A DNA stretch of 64,000 nt from Octopus vulgaris (GCA_951406725.2 OX597835.1:41974001-42038000); one strand, 5' to 3'. Positions 3,074-50,860 are shown, numbered from the stretch's first letter. Numbers and translations: made by a program. The notes: generated from the sequence alone by a model not told the origin.

Positions 3074-3955
3074 TCGGTTTGGTAAGAAAGTTCTTGGACA
3101 TTTTTAACTTATCACTTTATTAACAATTACAAAAACAACAAAGAACAATCAATCGTAAAGGTAATCACACTCGTTATCAATCATCTTTTGCCATCTTTCA
3201 GGCAAAGTTTTGAATCTTTTCGTCCAGAAATCGCCTGGTTTTGAATCAATAAAGTTGTAAAGGAATGATTTCACATCTTCTTCGTTTTCGAACTCTGTAT
3301 CACCAATCGCGCATTGCAAGGCAGAGAATAAGTTGTAGTCAGAAGGGGCAACGTCAGGAGAATACGGTGGGTGCACCATAATCTCCCAGCCCACCTCCTT
3401 CAGCTTCTCTGATGTCTTCTTTGTATGATGTGCTGGCACGTTGTCTTGGTGGTAAATTACCTTCTCCAAATTTGAGTGTTTTTCAGCCAGTGTGATCTTT
3501 AGATGGTCAATTTGTTTGCAGTAGACATCCTTGTCAATGGCAGTATTGCATGGGAGAAGATCCAACATAATCACAACACGGTGATCCCACCAAACTGAGA
3601 TCATAACCTTCTTTTGTACAAGCGGTCCTTTTGGTGAAGGTTTTGGCTGTTGACCTTTGCTACACCAGGATTGTCTGTGCCTCACGGTGTACAGTACCCA
3701 CTTTTCATCCATAGTGATTACTGACTCCAACCAATCGAATTGTCAGCTTCACCGGAGAAAACTTTGACATGCAGGGACACGTGCTTGTTTGTTCACTTCA
3801 GTCAATTCATGTGGCACCCATTTTCCAGGCTTGCTGTCCATGCTGAGTCTTTATATAGTCACAATAGACACATTGGCTGCTCCTGATTGGTTGGTGACGC
3901 TGATTGGTTGCAGGACTGAAGGCTTGGTTGTCTAAGAACTTTCTTACCAATGTAA
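3074..3955 (-). mobile_element. Mariner (DD34D) transposon, internally deleted and inactive
   Basis: TIRs TCGGTTTGGTAAGAAAGTTCTTGGACA and the reverse complement of TGTCTAAGAACTTTCTTACCAATGTAA, TA-flanked; about 880 bp with no HTH region. Confidence 0.88.
3149..3835 (-). pseudogene. Mariner transposase catalytic domain remnant
   Basis: WVPHEL upstream, then two in-frame TGA stops, then TMDEKW / HQDNVPAH / YSPDVAPSDY with 34 residues between the second and third Asp. Confidence 0.92.
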
Positions 3956-15169: not shown

Positions 15170-16070
15170 GTGCGCTCACAAGGAATGAAGCCAGCATGCT
15201 CTGATGGATGTGTAATGTCAGTGTGCATACTCGACAGAGTGTTAGTGCCCTGACAGAAAGGTTGGACCTAAGAAGCATCAGATGTGGTGTGCAAGAGAGA
15301 CGACTGCGCTGGCATGGTCATGTGGTGAGAATGGATGTGGATAGCTGTGTGAAAAAGTGCCACACCTTAGGAGTTGAGGGAACTTGTGGAAGAGGTAGAC
15401 CCAGGAAGACCTGGGATGAGATGGTGAAGCATGACCTTCAAACATTGAGCCTCACTGAGGCAATGACTAGTGACCGGGACCTCTGGAAATATGCTGTGCT
15501 GCAGAAGACTTGTGGCCTATGCTGGGGGTGTACCAGTCCACTTATGCATGCCTTTTCTTCATTGGACACTAAACTCTGCTTGCGAAGACCAGTTGAGGCA
15601 AGTGAAATCGAAGTTGAAATCAAACTTGGTGACTGGCATCCATTGCTAGTGGAGCGCTAAGAGTACCATACGAGTGAGATCGTTGCCAGAGCAACAAGTT
15701 GGCCTTCGTGCCGATGGCACGTTAAACACACCATTCGAGTGTGATCATTATCGCGTCGCCTTACAAGCACTTGTACTGGTGGCACGTGAAACATTCGAGC
15801 GAGGTCGTCGCCAGTGCTGCTGGAATGGCTCCTGTGCAGGTGGCACATAAAAAGCACCATTTGGGTGTGGTCGTTCCCAGTACCACCAAACTGGCCCTCG
15901 TGCCGGTGGCACATAAAAGCACCCACTACACTCTCGGAGTGGTTGTCATTAGGAAGGGCATCCAGCTGTAGAAACTCTACCAGATCAGATTGGAGTCTGG
16001 TTCGCCAGACCTCAGTCAAATCGTCCAACCCATGCTAGCATGGAAAGTGGACGTTAAGTGATGATGATGA

Positions 16071-24219: not shown

Positions 24220-25091
24220 TGGTTTCAAATTTTGACTCAACGCCAGCAAGTTCGGAGGAGGGGCTACGTCGCTAAGGCAAAGTCGACTCCGGCAGAATTT
24301 GAACCCAGAACATAAAGACGATTCTGCCGGCTCGCCGCCTATTCTTTAACGTAAAAGTGGCTTCAAATTTTTGGCACAAGGCCCCAGTGTCCAGCTGGTA
24401 ATTATTTTATCGACCCCAAAAGAGGATGAATGGCAATTACGTTAAAGAATATGCGGTGGGTTGGCAGAATCGTTAGCACGCCGGGCGAAATGCTTTGCGG
24501 CATTTCATCAGTCTTTACATTCTGAGTTCAAATTCCGCCCAGGTCGACTTTGCCTTTTCATCCTTTCAAAGTCGATAAAATGAAGGTCAATTGAGCGCTA
24601 TGGTCGACTCAACTCTCCTCCGAGATTGGTGGCCCTGTGCCAAAATGTGAGACCAATAATAATCCTTACTTCCATGGGCACAAGGCCGAAATTTAGGGAA
24701 AGGACACTAATCGATTACATCGACCCCAGTGTTTTACTGGTACTTAATTTATCGACCACGAAAGAATGAAAAGCAAAGTCGACCTCGGCGGAATTTGAAC
24801 TCAGAACATAAAGACAGACGAAATACTGCTAAGCATTTCGCCCGGGGTGCTAGCGATTCTGCGAGCTCGCCACCTTGTGAAACAATAATAATCTTTTCTA
24901 CTCTAGGCACAAGGTCCAAAATTTTAAGGGGAGGGGCGGTTGATTACATCGACCCCAGTACGCAACTGGTAATTAATTTATTGACCCCGAAAGGATGAAA
25001 GGCAAACTCGACCTCGGTGGAATTTGAAATCAGAACGTAAAAGACAGAAGACATACTGCTAAGCATTTCGCCCGGGGTGCTAACGTTTCTG
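24220..25091. mobile_element. SINE A cluster in mixed orientation; the last minus-strand copy is interrupted at 25091 and resumes at 26697-26731
   Basis: Repeated SINE A head and core motifs. Confidence 0.8.
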
Positions 25092-26696
25092 ATTTCTTTA
25101 TTATCCATAAAGGGTTGACGAAGATAAGAGACAAACAACACATTGGGGACATAAAACACACAAAAAAAAAAAGTAAGATAAAAATGAGAGGGTGAAAATG
25201 AAATATGAAAGCGCTGTTACCCACCCCATCGGATAACATCGCTTACCTGTCCTCTTTTCCTAGGTCTTCTTCTTACAGTCTTCTGAAAAATACTTAGTCT
25301 CTTAATTTCATCCCGCACCGCTTTTCCAGTTCTTTATTCTCATCCAAGTCTATCTCCTTTCTTATTGACCCCAAAACATTAATCACTTCATCTTCAAATT
25401 CTCTTACTTGTTCTTCCTCATCCCAACTCAACCTCACCCAAGTCCTTCAATATTTCCAACAGGTCCTCGTCTTCTAATACTCCTATAGCATGCGTTACGG
25501 GAGGGGGATTTTGTAAGTTGTTCTGTGTGTCTATTTTTTTGTTTTCTTGTTGGCAGGGAGTGGGTAGGCTTTGTGTCTGCAGGGGAAGGGTGGGACAAAG
25601 AGGGTGTGGGTGGCGTCGGGGTGGGTTGGGGTTCATTATAACTTGCCTTCTTTCTTTCTCTCTTCTTCCTTTTACCACTGGTTTTCGACTCTGATTTATC
25701 TTCTATCTTTTCTTCTGTCTTTCTCTGTTCCTCTTGCGGCTCCCGGGTATCTTCTATCTCTTTTACGGGCTCCTTCGATGGTTCCTTTGCTGGTGGAGGG
25801 CAGTTAGCTCTTTTGTGGCCTTTCAGGCCGCATTTAAAACATTTACGAGCTCTGCCCTCCACCCATACACGCAGACTAATGTCTCCTATTGTGATCACCT
25901 CTGTTAAGCGCTCCAGGACTTCAGCTTCCGCCTGGACGCTCATTTCCAATACTCCTCCTTTCCACTTGCCTTCATCCGCAATCGTGGCCTGCAGTATGTC
26001 CACCTTATCCTTATTGTCAATGAGGATGGCTGCCACTACCAATTCAGCTTCTATGTCGGGCGGGATTCCCTTTACCCTGATCCTGGTCGTCTTCCTTCCT
26101 AGATACGAGGGCAGAAGGAATACTTTTTCTGTTTTAATAGTCCTTGCTGCCATCCTCCTAGCCACTGCCTCCGATTCGAACTGTACAACGACAGTACCGT
26201 ACTTATTACCTCTTGTCAGGAATATTACCTTTTCTGCTGTTGTCCGTAATGCCTCCTCCACGGTTTCCATTCCAACTGTATCCATTTTTCTTTTGTCTGT
26301 TGCAAATACCTTGTACGTTATGGTTTTCCTATCAAAATTTGTTATCGTTTTCCTTGGCGGAGACAACTCCGCGTCACCGCCTACCTTCTTCACCCATTTC
26401 TGGCCGTCCGGTAACTTCGCAAGGTCAACCTCTTTGTTTGTTGGCTTCATTGCTCCTGCGTAATTCATTTTTCCTTCCATTACCATATCCAGTCTGTTGA
26501 CCGCTCTCGTCAGTTCCTCTTCCTCCGAAGTCAACAGGTCCGACTCACTGAGGTCAGAATACCTGCTCCTCCTTGCCATTTCTTCAACAACACCACCGCT
26601 GCGAACAGCAAATATCTAAAACAATTACACTAAAAAAAAAATATAACTTTTAACCATTCGACCTACACAGATGAAAAAAACACGAAGTATCAAACA
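25092..26696 (-). mobile_element. ORF1-only (Tx1/L1-like, HAL1-type) non-autonomous retroelement inserted in a SINE A head
   Basis: Direct repeat CGG(G/C)GTGCTAACGTTTCTG at 25073-25091 and 26697-26715; single gag-like ORF; 3' end ...GGATAATAAAGAAAT. Confidence 0.78.
25434..26579 (-). CDS. Gag/ORF1p-like nucleic-acid-binding protein (RRM-like region plus CCHC zinc knuckle), 381 aa
   Basis: CFKCGLKGHKRANC (CX2CX4HX4C), TRIRVKGIPP and YGTVVVQFES; ATG start; C-terminus probably frameshifted, since an acidic frame continues to about 25300. Confidence 0.8.
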   Translation of the reverse strand: MARRSRYSDLSESDLLTSEEEELTRAVNRLDMVMEGKMNYAGAMKPTNKEVDLAKLPDGQKWVKKVGGDAELSPPRKTITNFDRKTITYKVFATDKRKMDTVGMETVEEALRTTAEKVIFLTRGNKYGTVVVQFESEAVARRMAARTIKTEKVFLLPSYLGRKTTRIRVKGIPPDIEAELVVAAILIDNKDKVDILQATIADEGKWKGGVLEMSVQAEAEVLERLTEVITIGDISLRVWVEGRARKCFKCGLKGHKRANCPPPAKEPSKEPVKEIEDTREPQEEQRKTEEKIEDKSESKTSGKRKKRERKKASYNEPQPTPTPPTPSLSHPSPADTKPTHSLPTRKQKNRHTEQLTKSPSRNACYRSIRRRGPVGNIEGLG

Positions 26697-26974
26697 CGGC
26701 GTGCTAACGTTTCTGCCAGCTCAACGCCGCCGTGTGAAACAATAATAATGCCGAATCTGTGTGAGAAGGTTGGATTTTTGGATTAAAGGTTATAGTCCAG
26801 GCAGAGAAGAAGAGGAAGAAGATAAGAAGGGGGGAGAGGAGTGTGAGAAAGGAAGAGAAGACTAATAGAAAGATGAAGAGGACAGGGGAAATGGCGGAGA
26901 AGGGGAGGAGGATATTGGTGAGAAGAGGGTAGTGTGAAGGGGAGAATGATGAGGAGGGAAAGAGAAGATTGAGG

Positions 26975-27118
26975 AAGGAAGGAAGGAGAAGGCAGAGGCA
27001 GAGGAGAAAGGAAGGAAGGAGAAGGCAGAGGCAGAGGAGAAAGGAAGGAAGGAGAAGGCAGAGGCAGAGGAGAAAGGAAGGAAGGAGAAGGCAGAGGCAG
27101 AGGAGAAGGGAAGGAAGA
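26975..27118. repeat. Purine-rich minisatellite, 33-bp unit, about 4 copies
   Basis: GGAAGGAAGGAGAAGGCAGAGGCAGAGGAGAAA repeated. Confidence 0.88.
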
Positions 27119-28114
27119 GGTTGAGAAGACAATGACGAAGAAGAAGAAAAGAATAGACCTAATACTTAATTCATCGACCTCCGGAAACGCTGAGCTGTAA
27201 GGTTGACTTCTGCTGGATTTGATCGCAGAATGCAGATGGACCCAGATGCACTAACGGTTCTACTACCACCACCACAGTCACTATTACAACTTGCACCACC
27301 ACCACCACTATTTCTACCACTACCTCCCCCACCATTACTACAACTAGTACCATTACCGCCAGCAGTACCATCAAGACTACGACTAAAATTATGGCCAACA
27401 CTAACTACATTCACACGGGGTGGGCCAATTTGTACTTTGCTGTGAAGTTGACAAATCGTTCCTCTTTCAACAAAATGTAGTTTTCCAATTGAAAACCCGA
27501 GTTTTGGGAGTTTCTGTCCGTAGCGTCATCTTGTAAGTTCATGTTCTTCAGAACCCTACAAAGCATTTTATATTTGTAAGCAATTTTGATGTTAAATTTA
27601 TTTTGTCGTATAACATTTCTGTATACTTCCTTTCCTAATTCGTCTGATGGTTTCCTTATTTACTTCATCTAATCTTTGTTCTTGTCTGCTTGTTTTACAA
27701 ATGAGATCCTTAAATAACTAGCGATGTTTCTTGTTTTATTAAGTCGTAAAAAGCCGTTAAGTTCTTTTTATTTATTTCCATCCCCATTTCCTTTCTGAAA
27801 AATAATTCTCTCATATTTCCCTTCAAAAGATAAATACACATGTAGAAGCTATTACACTTCTGTTTAAGGATGTATATGCCTTTTGCTGCTGATAGCAAGG
27901 TTTAAAAAATATCTACCGCACGCCATTTTTCACGTCTGACCTATCAAAACAGTAAGAGTGGCTGAGAGAGAGAGAGGGAGGTGAAAGGTAAGTGAGTGAA
28001 TGGAGAGAGGAGGAGGAAAGATAGATAAAAGAAGGGATACTGAGACATATAGAAACATGGATAGATAGATAGATAGATAAAAAGGAGATTGAGACACAGA
28101 AACATGGATAGATA

Positions 28115-34873: not shown

Positions 34874-36155
34874 CGGGGGGGGGGGGCGTTCAATAAGTAA
34901 TGCCCCTGACCCACTTCCCATAGCAGTAGAGCAACGAAACTTGGCACAGGTATTAGTCTTTTTCTACATAGGAACCACCAAGAGTTACGCATTTCTCCCC
35001 TCGTTTGATGCAGCTCTGGAGACCGTTTTTGTAGAAGACCCCAGCTTGGTCCTCCAACCACGACGTGACTTTAGAAATCAAGGTTGCACCATCTGGGAAA
35101 CGCTTTCCTTTCAAAAACAACTTCATGGCTGGGAAGAGGTGAAAATCAGAAGGTGCAAAGTCAAGAGAGTAGGGGGGGAGTTCATAGCCGCACGCCTGTG
35201 CTTCTGATCCGGCGACACGCGAGTTCTGGACCGGAGCGTTGTCCTGCAGGAGGAGGATGCCTTTGCTGATCTTGCCCCGCCTCTTGATTTTGATAGCTTC
35301 TCTTAATTTCCTCAAAAGTGAAGTATAATAGGCTCCTGTAATTGTGGTACCATTTGCCAGGAAATCTGTCATCACTACTCCGTCCTGGTCCCAGAAGACT
35401 GTGAGCATGACCTTGCCAGCGGAGGGCTGTACCCTTGCCTTCTTTGGAGGAGGGGAGTCACGGTGCTTCCACTGCATTGACTGGACTTTGGTCTCTGGAT
35501 CATAGTGATGGACCCAGGTTTCATCCTGTCTAATCAGTATTTTGAAAAATTTTGACTCATCTTCTTGGCACATCTCCAAATTCATCCTCGAGCACTCGAC
35601 GCGTTCTTGCTTCTGGAAAAGTGTGAGCAACCTGGGAATCCATCTGGCAGGCACCTTTTGCATATGCAAATGGTCATGAATGATAGTTTCCACAGATCCG
35701 GTACTAATCTTGACCTGATGGGCTATTTGGCGAAGAGTTATGCGTCGATCTTTCAAAATGGCAGCCTCAACTTGACGGACAGATACCTCATCAATGACAG
35801 AAAGGGGGCGACCAGATCTGGGAGCTGTTTCCACAGAGTTCCGACCATGTTTGAATTCACGATACCAGCCAGCGTTTTACAAGGTCATATGATGGGGCAT
35901 CATCACCATAAGTTACTTTCATTTCATCAAAATTCTCCCGTGGTGTGCGTCCTTTCAAATACAAAACCCGGATCGCTGTTCGACACTCAACAGGCTCCAT
36001 TTCACACATGACTCAGTTCAAACACCTGTAAATCAGAAACCACAATTAGTTCAGAGCTGTAATTTGCCACTTAATCTATAGAGATATAAATAATTGCACA
36101 GCTAGATCAAACAATTGTAAGTGGGTCAAGGGCATTACTTATTGAACGCCCCTCG
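34874..36155 (-). mobile_element. Full-length mariner (irritans/Hsmar2-like), about 1.28 kb
   Basis: TIR CGAGGGGCGTTCAATAAGTAATGCCC(C/T)TGACCCACTT at both ends, one with a G-run expansion; TA TSD. Confidence 0.92.
34953..36009 (-). pseudogene. Mariner transposase, frameshifted
   Basis: HTH region, WIPRLL, QDETW, QDNAP and YSLDFAPSDF motifs; 4-bp CTGG duplication at about 35865-35872; second-to-third Asp spacing is 31 (3-aa deletion). Confidence 0.9.
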
Positions 36156-49619: not shown

Positions 49620-50860
49620 ACTAACTATTCTACCACCTCGAAGAACCACATAGTAAAGTTTAACAAGAAACTATACATGCAGGTTCAAGGTACAGCCATT
49701 GGTGTCGGTGTAGCTGGAGATATGGCTGGCCTCTTCATAACCTGGTGGGACAGAAAACTTAAGCAGTCCTTTGCAGAACCCTCTACAACTCTTCTACTTT
49801 ACAATAGCTATGTAGATGACATTAATATCATAGTTAAGACCAACTCTAGTAACGGTAATGTAGAAACTGAGAGGGACATAATGAATAGGATACAGCAAGT
49901 AGCTAACTCCAACCACTAAAGTATTAGGATAACTATAGATTTCCCACTAGGCAACCCAACAATAGACACCACGTCTTTGATACTGAACGTTGGTTAGAGA
50001 CTGTGAACAACAGAGTGCAGCTCCTCCACTCCTATTACATCAAAGCCATAGCTTCGAAATATGTTGTTCACAAGAGCTCAGCTTTGTCACACAACAGACA
50101 GCAGATTTAGGATAATGAACAACGTGTCCCCACTATGCGAACTCTATGAAACGAAGAAACATGTACAGAACTTCATGCACCGCATGCAATTCTCTGGATA
50201 TGATCAGAAAGATACGGTTCGGGTATACAGGTGTGCTAGAAAGAAGTTAGTTCAAATTATATGTAATGAAACCAATGATACCTGCCCTAGATACAGAAGC
50301 AAAGACTGGAATAGGAGACAAAGAGCTTGTGACAAAGCAAACAGGGTGATCACGTGGTATAAAACCGACAAATATCAAGGAGTGATGTTTGTAGAGGCCA
50401 CAGCCCATGGAAAACTAGCCCGTAGGTTTAGGAAAACGTTGAAGGAGACCAATCTCAACATTAAGATTGTTGAAAAGCCAGGGAGCTCCATCCTATCACA
50501 ACTATGTAGAACGTACTCCTTTGAGAATACCATATGCACCAATGATAACTGCATGATATGTAGGATTAGTCCTGGCATTAACTATAGAACTAGAAATGTA
50601 GTCTTCAGTATAAGGGTGCATAGAAGGTGCTTGTAAAGACAAGAACATGACATACATAGGGGAGACATCTAGGAGCATTGTGGAAAGACTAAATGAACAT
50701 TTGAGACAATATGATGACAAAAAACAGTCCTCCATACTCTACCAACATGGAGGAAACATGGGTCAACTTGACATCTGCATTTTATCCAAGCACCCAAAGG
50801 ACCCAACACTCAGACAAATACGTCCCCATAAATGAAACATCCCCAGTACTAAATAGGAAA
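49620..50860 (+). pseudogene. Penelope-like element RT C-terminus plus GIY-YIG endonuclease, degenerate
   Basis: YMQVQGTAIG, YVDDI, Cys linker CTNDNCMIC and TYIGETSRSIVERLNEH; several frameshifts and stops. Confidence 0.85.

Follow-up and report, generated by a model that had tools for sequence, protein, structure and literature searches.

HeT-A, HAL1 and Ag-Sponge are listed, in passages of PMC5786205 and PMC5753468, as non-autonomous long interspersed nuclear elements (LINEs) that have the first open reading frame, ORF1, only. Passages of PMC4494074 on the Tx1 clade place Tx1 in Tx1D, Tx1-Mar with SINEU in Mariner-N4_AMi, and Keno in U2, and the SIDEs of R2 and R1 are described, in parts of the same paper and of PMC3414825, as site-specific deleted derivatives in 28S ribosomal DNA. 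For octopus, the tRNA-derived CORE-SINEs OR1 and OR2 (SINE, short interspersed nuclear element) are named in sections of PMC4824008 and PMC4758252, and the main text of a 2026 annotation of O. vulgaris gives 13 recently active L1-Tx1 families (PMC13282606). The subject here is a retroelement, in a stretch of 64,000 nucleotides of Octopus vulgaris DNA (GCA_951406725.2 OX597835.1:41974001-42038000; this whole stretch is referred to as the window), which splits a SINE and encodes ORF1 alone. It probably represents a small, ORF1-only, non-autonomous family, situated mostly at one base of the SINE and sharing its 3′ tail with L1/Tx1-group LINEs, which are likely to copy it in trans. What carries this reading is the anatomy of the locus, selection on ORF1, enrichment at the site, a SINE head borne by the element and the tail shared with LINEs; mobilisation in trans by LINE ORF2 is what that tail, together with chimeric copies, points to.

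The insert, at 26696-25092 on the minus strand (the orientation of all features given for this locus), is 1605 bp long and splits one SINE copy that has the same orientation. The duplication flanking it is identical at 18 of 19 positions, the upstream copy being GAGCTGG followed by CAGAAACGTTAGCACGCCG (26697..26715) and the downstream copy CAGAAACGTTAGCACCCCG (25073..25091). A preliminary description of this DNA had the arrangement right, as it did the leader (117 nt, 26580..26696), the single 381-residue frame (25434..26579) with a CX2CX4HX4C knuckle at residues 247-260, and, on inspection of the sequence, the lack of endonuclease, reverse transcriptase (RT) and poly(A). The SINE has a 17-bp target duplication of its own, ATTATTATTGTTTCACA, which matches at 17/17 and bounds both halves (left copy 26733..26749, right copy 24876..24892), so the halves are one SINE copy: its 5′ head up to the insertion point is at 26716..26731, and the remainder, body and short tail, at 24893..25072. 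The insertion point is at the start of what we take to be the RNA polymerase III (Pol III) A-box, a label that, like B-box, we apply on the strength of a presumed consensus. A tRNA origin of the SINE was detected neither by ARAGORN (0 genes) nor by Rfam (no tRNA match). In what follows the insert's family is termed family A, the SINE position TGG(C)^AGAAWCGTTAGCAC is site 1, and the position 34 nt downstream of it, before GGTATTTCG, is site 2. Among the first 100 junctions listed, 99 have A as the base after AAAGAAAT; T is found there in 3/8 family-A hosts as against 5/116 intact SINE heads. Because this base differs with the inserting family, a cut one base further on than first placed is the likelier, TGGC^AGAA, with an 18-bp duplication.

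A DNA search with the element, in which the best 40 of 798 candidates were scored, returned 30 loci. These comprise 13 family-A copies with the 3′ end, 4 family-A copies and 2 relatives at 74-77% lacking it, and 11 members of more distant subfamilies (68-72%) with other flanks; only the first 13 are used for counts of targeting. A second search with the 5′ 197 nt, all 17 candidates being scored, gave 14 with the 5′ end. Seven family-A copies reach both ends. They are 1.3-1.7 kb long, 84-91% identical and have no room for ORF2, as expected of the ORF1-only family that had been proposed; since full copies are so few and so diverged, family A is, by these comparisons, small and not young. Only the window copy retains a long open frame. 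The family has target-site duplications (TSDs) of 17 and 20 bp and 5′-truncated copies, both hallmarks of target-primed reverse transcription (TPRT). Its only contact with ORF2 is in two copies, L267 and L274, which are joined abruptly to same-strand LINE ORF2 pieces and are read as chimeras.

Site 1 is directly 3′ of 8/13 family-A 3′ ends (compared with randomly chosen positions P is about 2e-28, and compared with the full set of AGAAW motifs 1e-9; the site density, 18 fuzzy sites, is taken from this window only), which bears out the suggestion that insertion sites would be enriched in SINE heads and narrows it to one base. The eight downstream SINE halves are of both tail types and are less alike among themselves than to control SINEs (72.5% host-host identity, 78.2% host-control). 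None has another host as its nearest neighbour, the best rank being 24/123. The eight site-1 insertions are therefore separate. Full-length copies are on target in 6 of 7 cases and 5′-truncated ones in 2 of 6, small as these numbers are. Other ORF1-only families (L097, L125, L126, L123) also end at site 1, and so do two ORF2-deleted LINEs, L140 and L142. The most frequent occupant is the long-tail SINE, with 3,193 exact junctions, the exact empty heads numbering 36,004 (counted with a different pattern); SINE sequence is upstream in all 30 junctions sampled from the 3,193, part of which may be propagated dimers. Head, 18-bp duplication and insert are all seen in L230, L224 and L090. [The idea that SINE RNAs ending 8-13 nt into the target insert elsewhere was rejected, the short matches being 18-19-bp TSDs of degenerate targets (L224, L228, L230).] By the measure in PMC4494074 of more than 20% of flanks lying in one repeat, family A at site 1 (8/13) and LINE-E at site 2 (23/27) are above the line and the LINE-C type at site 1 (2/30) is below it. 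Two further observations concern these SINE sites. At the 3′ junction of L008, 16 nt of the element's own leader replace the homologous bases of the downstream SINE half, which suggests conversion or an aborted second insertion. Very common, too, are SINE multimers with site 2 as the starting point of the later units (AAAGAAAT|AGGTATTTCG), for example in L120, L263 and L013.

The protein has an acidic N-terminus, predicted tandem RNA recognition motifs (RRMs), the CCHC knuckle (Pfam zf-CCHC, E 0.011, below the curated cut-off) and a basic, proline-rich tail. Judged by an extra A at 25534, which is at odds with 4/4 sequencing runs and with Octopus sinensis protein P0001, by gaps of 11 and 27 nt relative to copy L003 and by the 441-472 residues of intact ORF1 relatives as against 381 here, its C-terminus is damaged and its core is not. 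The sole match in a homolog search was P0001, an annotated protein, with 94% identity across 57% of the query; a profile search gave 1,876 matches without names, some of them zinc-knuckle repeats. The ratio of nonsynonymous to synonymous rates (dN/dS) relative to the window copy, a comparison proposed in the preliminary description, is 0.22-0.49 in 12/13 copies and 0.97 in one C-terminal fragment. In the core, nonsynonymous/synonymous (N/S) counts are 55/69 for changes shared among copies and 173/62 for private ones (P=8e-8). By both measures family-A ORF1 evolved under purifying selection and was functional. A structure model is confident at residues about 51-260, its best matches being tandem-RRM proteins (IMP3 RRM12, E 1.3e-5; 61 matches at E<=0.001), and so tandem RRMs plus a knuckle are predicted. 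With LINE ORF1s there is about 30% identity and a core in common, none being closer than about 33%. Trees of the core separate five LINE ORF1s from a group, supported at 100/98 and 100/99, that unites family A with further ORF1-only families; another ORF1-only lineage falls elsewhere in them, on long branches.

The last 24 nt of the element match the end of the long-tail SINE at 19 positions, and the five mismatches are all transitions, as first described. No shuffle of 2000 that preserved the dinucleotides of the 342-nt 3′ region reaches 19 anywhere (maximum 18), and in fixed register the maximum in 5000 is 16. The similarity is thus real, but the claim that the element carries that SINE's tail does not hold: the host copy is short-tailed although the comparison had been with the long-tail SINE, and both tails are better matched by LINEs with an apurinic endonuclease-like domain (APE) and RT. 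Two intact ones, L218 and L219, end TAAAGAAAT, are 98.9% identical and have an ORF1 of 443-446 residues and an ORF2 of 1128, with Pfam Exo_endo_phos, RVT_1 and zf-RVT and with catalytic motifs present (RT motif labels are those we presume). The best solved relative of this ORF2 is human L1 ORF2p (E 7e-67), by which they are L1-group LINEs; the homolog search gave no clade names. Over the last 24 nt these LINEs agree with the SINE at 23 positions and with the element at 20, both figures above the 19 of element against SINE, and the last 69 nt of the element can be aligned to the LINE end. This LINE-type 3′ end (25092..25160), with a small CCC-N5-GGG stem-loop, is common to intact APE-RT LINEs, the long-tail SINE and other ORF1-only families. 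By these matches the tails of element and long-tail SINE both derive from intact APE-RT LINEs, and the proposal that the SINE is at once passenger and target of the same system is supported, since it has the LINE tail and itself fills the same base. Further inside the element, AGGTAAGCGATG (25237..25248) is like the ORF1-stop/ORF2-start junction of related LINEs, a likeness judged by eye, and is a possible scar of ORF2 deletion.

The autonomous LINE that had been postulated is therefore found as regards the tail, but not as one dedicated to site 1; the LINE that is specific for the SINE uses the site 34 nt downstream. This sister family (L337; L305-L334, L337-L341) is 5.4 kb long, has an uninterrupted ORF2 of 1133 residues with one motif changed, and is at site 2 at 23/27 of its ends with tail. 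L324 was considered as a site-1 LINE and rejected: its apparent site-1 end is a SINE tail, and the LINE itself is at site 2. The 5′ SINE head of the site-2 LINE supplies a site 1, and in L124 an ORF2-deleted LINE has used it. A third target with the same pattern of rebuilding is found in the 3′ flanks of L120, L121, L133 and L135, where a young LINE family (ORF2 of 1131+ residues) inserts at ACATGGAGGAAAGCACC and starts with a copy of that motif; ACATGGAGGAAAGCACC itself translates as a decayed ORF1 homolog.

The site-1 segment precedes all 14 family-A copies with a 5′ end, L007 and L006, whose 3′ ends are not in a SINE, included. It has the variant GTCAG in 10/14 of these copies but in only 1/116 intact SINE heads (7/9 tested, P=4e-9). 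The first 28 nt of the leader continue in register with the SINE head in the better-preserved copies, at 20-23/28 in L003, L004, L005 and L012, a level that 0/2000 shuffles reach, and at 13-17/28 in the other five. From the variant and the register, the upstream 'TSD' is often brought by the element and not copied from the host, so that across the family the duplication reported earlier is no simple TSD. A run of seven T's, 16 nt into the leader, would stop Pol III. This, the ORF1 that it encodes and a polyadenylated contig in run X1 distinguish the element from a SINE. Full-length members of the site-2 LINE family have SINE head 1-63 followed by their own leader, the same anatomy as in family A, with a head variant in 5/6 as against 27/120 controls. 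The relatives L015 and L021 adjoin site 2, and we infer from these sequences that an ancestor of family A sat at site 2, fixed the head upstream of it and later moved to site 1.

Run X1, by guess RNA (15.5 million letters; no run with this sequence is recorded as RNA), has contigs over 25014..26764 on the minus strand. One of them, weak evidence as a single contig, stops at 25014, which is 78 nt into the downstream half of the SINE, in 24 nt of poly(A) that the genome does not encode. The corresponding loose end of 24 T's has no such run in the genome, and there is no depth over 26814-28000. Run X6 has one contig, 25062-26867. The X1 contigs are a hint of an RNA polymerase II (Pol II) transcript with SINE sequence at both ends. 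Run X9 covers the upstream stretch 27078-27980 at a depth close to that of the element, which may be a longer transcript or DNA, and one run shows a 15-nt deletion in the ORF1 core.

A cycle that would fit these features can be proposed. A Pol II transcript would start upstream of or within the SINE head and read through the element. ORF1, for which the selection is evident, would package its own RNA in cis, and the packaged RNA would join a LINE ORF2 complex that recognises the ...TAAAGAAAT end. The LINE endonuclease would nick at TGGC^AGAA, aided by AGAA microhomology with the RNA end, and the second strand would be cut about 18 bp on. The SINE-derived 5′ end of the complementary DNA would then pair with the homologous target head, with the result seen in the copies, that the segment in the element's version often takes the place of a TSD copied from the host, and a new landing site is restored. 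The ancestor at site 2, 34 nt downstream, would have acquired a fixed 5′ end from the SINE sequence upstream of it before switching site. The long-tail SINE would ride the same LINE tail and fill the same base, and the ORF2-fused family copies are the product to be expected of template switching in a shared particle. Such a system would account for thousands of SINE dimers and for the ORF1-only arrays in the octopus genome, and it bears on why non-autonomous elements keep ORF1.

Several points weigh against this picture. No intact LINE at site 1 was found by four genome-search routes. ORF2 is upstream in none of 47 of the 48 Y-junctions examined (the 48th is the ORF1-only L125), in none of the 30 sampled from 3,193 A-junctions and, with the exception of one deleted copy, in none of 25 LINE-tail junctions. 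Only 2/30 3′ ends of the LINE type nearest an ORF2-deleted site-1 copy are at site 1, both without ORF2, and a single decayed ORF2-bearing fragment (L277/L335) ends there. As family A has no young members, its helper may be extinct. Then 5/13 family-A 3′ ends are off-target, ending at TAAAGAAAT without SINE, with TSDs of 20 bp (L011) and 17 bp (L022) or within (TG)n. Both 5′-truncated on-target copies lack the upstream head, and 3′ transduction or deletion could also explain them. The ORF2-fused L267 and L274 could be taken as ORF2-bearing forms. Finally, the window copy is a poor witness to its own family: its duplication is host-like (GTTAG, one of four copies) and its leader is poorly kept, at 13/28.

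How site 1 is chosen is a matter on which an ORF1-only family copied in trans leaves room for two explanations. The one with a chance not far short of even is that a separate LINE specific for site 1, unseen or extinct, makes the choice wholly through its endonuclease, the SINE sequence on the RNA being a by-product without influence except on the 5′ join. The strictness of the sister family for site 2 (23/27) shows that dedicated endonucleases exist in this LINE group, and by the rule set out for Tx1 in the relevant part of PMC4494074 specificity is a property of the endonuclease. The use of site 1 by several unrelated ORF1-only families (L097, L125, L126) fits as well, and among the relatives of the LINE piece fused to copy L006 the decayed ORF2-bearing fragment at site 1 ranks second. 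However, the genome searches made gave no intact or multi-copy site-1 LINE, and the nearest LINE group has only a weak [AC]AGAA[AT] bias, read by eye at 7 of its 14 closest ends. The better performance of full-length over truncated copies on target (6/7 as against 2/6), small as the numbers are, also speaks against it.

The second explanation, rather unlikely on present evidence, is that the passenger programmes its own targeting: landing-site sequence on both RNA ends would base-pair and steer a loosely specific LINE enzyme to one SINE base, and capture of a new piece of SINE head would change the target. If so, site choice would be set by the passenger RNA and not by the endonuclease, the arrangement would be self-renewing, and the SINE would be target, passenger and guide donor in one. 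The locus is in this respect a natural test of RNA-target pairing against endonuclease preference in LINE site choice, which is relevant to retrotransposon-based gene insertion.

Readings that do away with a targeted family fare worse. It is improbable that the copy in the window has been domesticated and retained by the host for the RNA-binding protein it encodes: this copy is the sole family-A copy with a long open frame, has the annotated O. sinensis counterpart at 94% identity and appears transcribed, but its private changes (N/S 11/8) are no different from those of other copies (P=0.18), its C-terminus is shortened and one run has the 15-nt core deletion. Slightly less probable again is a single insertion into a SINE followed by movement or duplication of the composite of element and both SINE halves, such that the site was inherited and not targeted. 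The upstream segment is indeed inherited, a transcript possibly takes in both halves, and here one 17-bp duplication bounds the whole composite; but the unrelated downstream halves described above, with both tail types, largely refute co-mobilisation, and five copies end at TAAAGAAAT without any SINE, so it was rejected. That an ordinary LINE underwent a one-off internal deletion and fell in a SINE by chance, for which the two ORF2-deleted LINE copies at site 1 (L140, L142) might be cited, is refuted by at least 14 independent copies, by the lack of any LINE ORF1 closer than about 33% and by the strong site enrichment.

The wider ORF1-only clade to which family A belongs is large, with 13,974 candidates, of which 143 were scored, and many open frames in 1.75-kb head-to-tail arrays. 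Loci L061-L063, L065-L073 and L131-L139 (for example G000:C2:138.77-138.79 Mb) are young ORF1-only relatives with frames of up to 472 residues, arrayed head to tail in units of 1.7-1.8 kb, up to about 13 of them; such arrays frequently stop at a full-length LINE or a decayed repeat starting ACATGGAGGAAA. Members of a 68-70% subfamily (L019, L020, L025, L027, L029) are always followed by the same non-SINE sequence, AAGTAATGTCTGTTTT..., a constant flank which implies that sister families have different fixed targets. Decayed ORF1-like sequence is present at a distance of about 0.5-2 kb from the ORF1-only copies L042 (after ORF1), L077, L080 and L006, and suggests that older layers of the same elements serve as landing pads. 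Elsewhere in the window, the reading frames at 3149-3712 and 34953-35663 resemble fragments of mariner-type transposase, and those at 15208-15660 and 50061-50636 fragments of RTE-type and Penelope-type retroelements.

Comparison with the systems outlined at the start shows where family A belongs. With HAL1, HeT-A and Ag-Sponge, as far as these are treated in the text of the papers cited for them, it has in common one ORF1-type protein under purifying selection, a LINE 3′ end, no ORF2 and presumed trans-mobilisation; several copies have ORF1 without ORF2, the ORF1 is LINE-type and selected, and the hallmarks of TPRT are present. It differs in its parent, an octopus L1/Tx1-group LINE, in its non-poly(A) tail, in its single SINE base and in its SINE-derived 5′ end, and the text of PMC5786205 and PMC5753468 drawn on here mentions no sequence target for HAL1 or Ag-Sponge. 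HAL1 proper is derived from mammalian L1 and ends in poly(A), whereas family-A copies end TAAAGAAAT without it, so family A is HAL1-like in its working and not a member.

The Tx1 clade, in the passages of PMC4494074 concerned, offers a LINE group that shares with its passengers a fixed site in another repeat, duplications of about 16-19 bp, tandem stacking, two sites in one target, and heads derived from RNA genes on some LINEs. The partner LINEs have the two ORFs, APE, RT of the L1 group and C-terminal zinc motif of that clade. Here, in contrast, the SINE targeted also rides the same LINE tail as a passenger, the element as passenger encodes ORF1, and no intact LINE was found for the exact base. 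With the SIDEs of R2 and R1 it shares site specificity in a non-autonomous derivative by internal deletion, and co-transcription with the target is said, in the portions of those papers used, to strengthen targeting; but SIDEs encode no protein, R2 has a restriction-like endonuclease and a ribozyme, and the target of family A is not 28S but a SINE that is dispersed and offers 36,004 exact sites or more. The host SINE is likened to OR1/OR2 by description only, as an abundant octopus SINE with a tRNA-like head in which the box motifs are presumed.

The literature search, to which Repbase, Dfam and supplements were external, turned up neither this combination in cephalopods nor a SINE head serving as fixed target, and in the main text of PMC13282606 the words 'target', 'nested' and 'ORF1' do not occur; the families may already be catalogued in Repbase, Dfam or the repeat library of that annotation. 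ORF1-only LINEs, repeat-targeting L1/Tx1-group LINEs with their passengers, LINE-tailed SINEs and the target co-transcription of R2 are each known separately. What is new is their meeting in an ORF1-only L1/Tx1-group passenger for which one SINE is fixed target, tail-sharing co-passenger and donor of the 5′ end.

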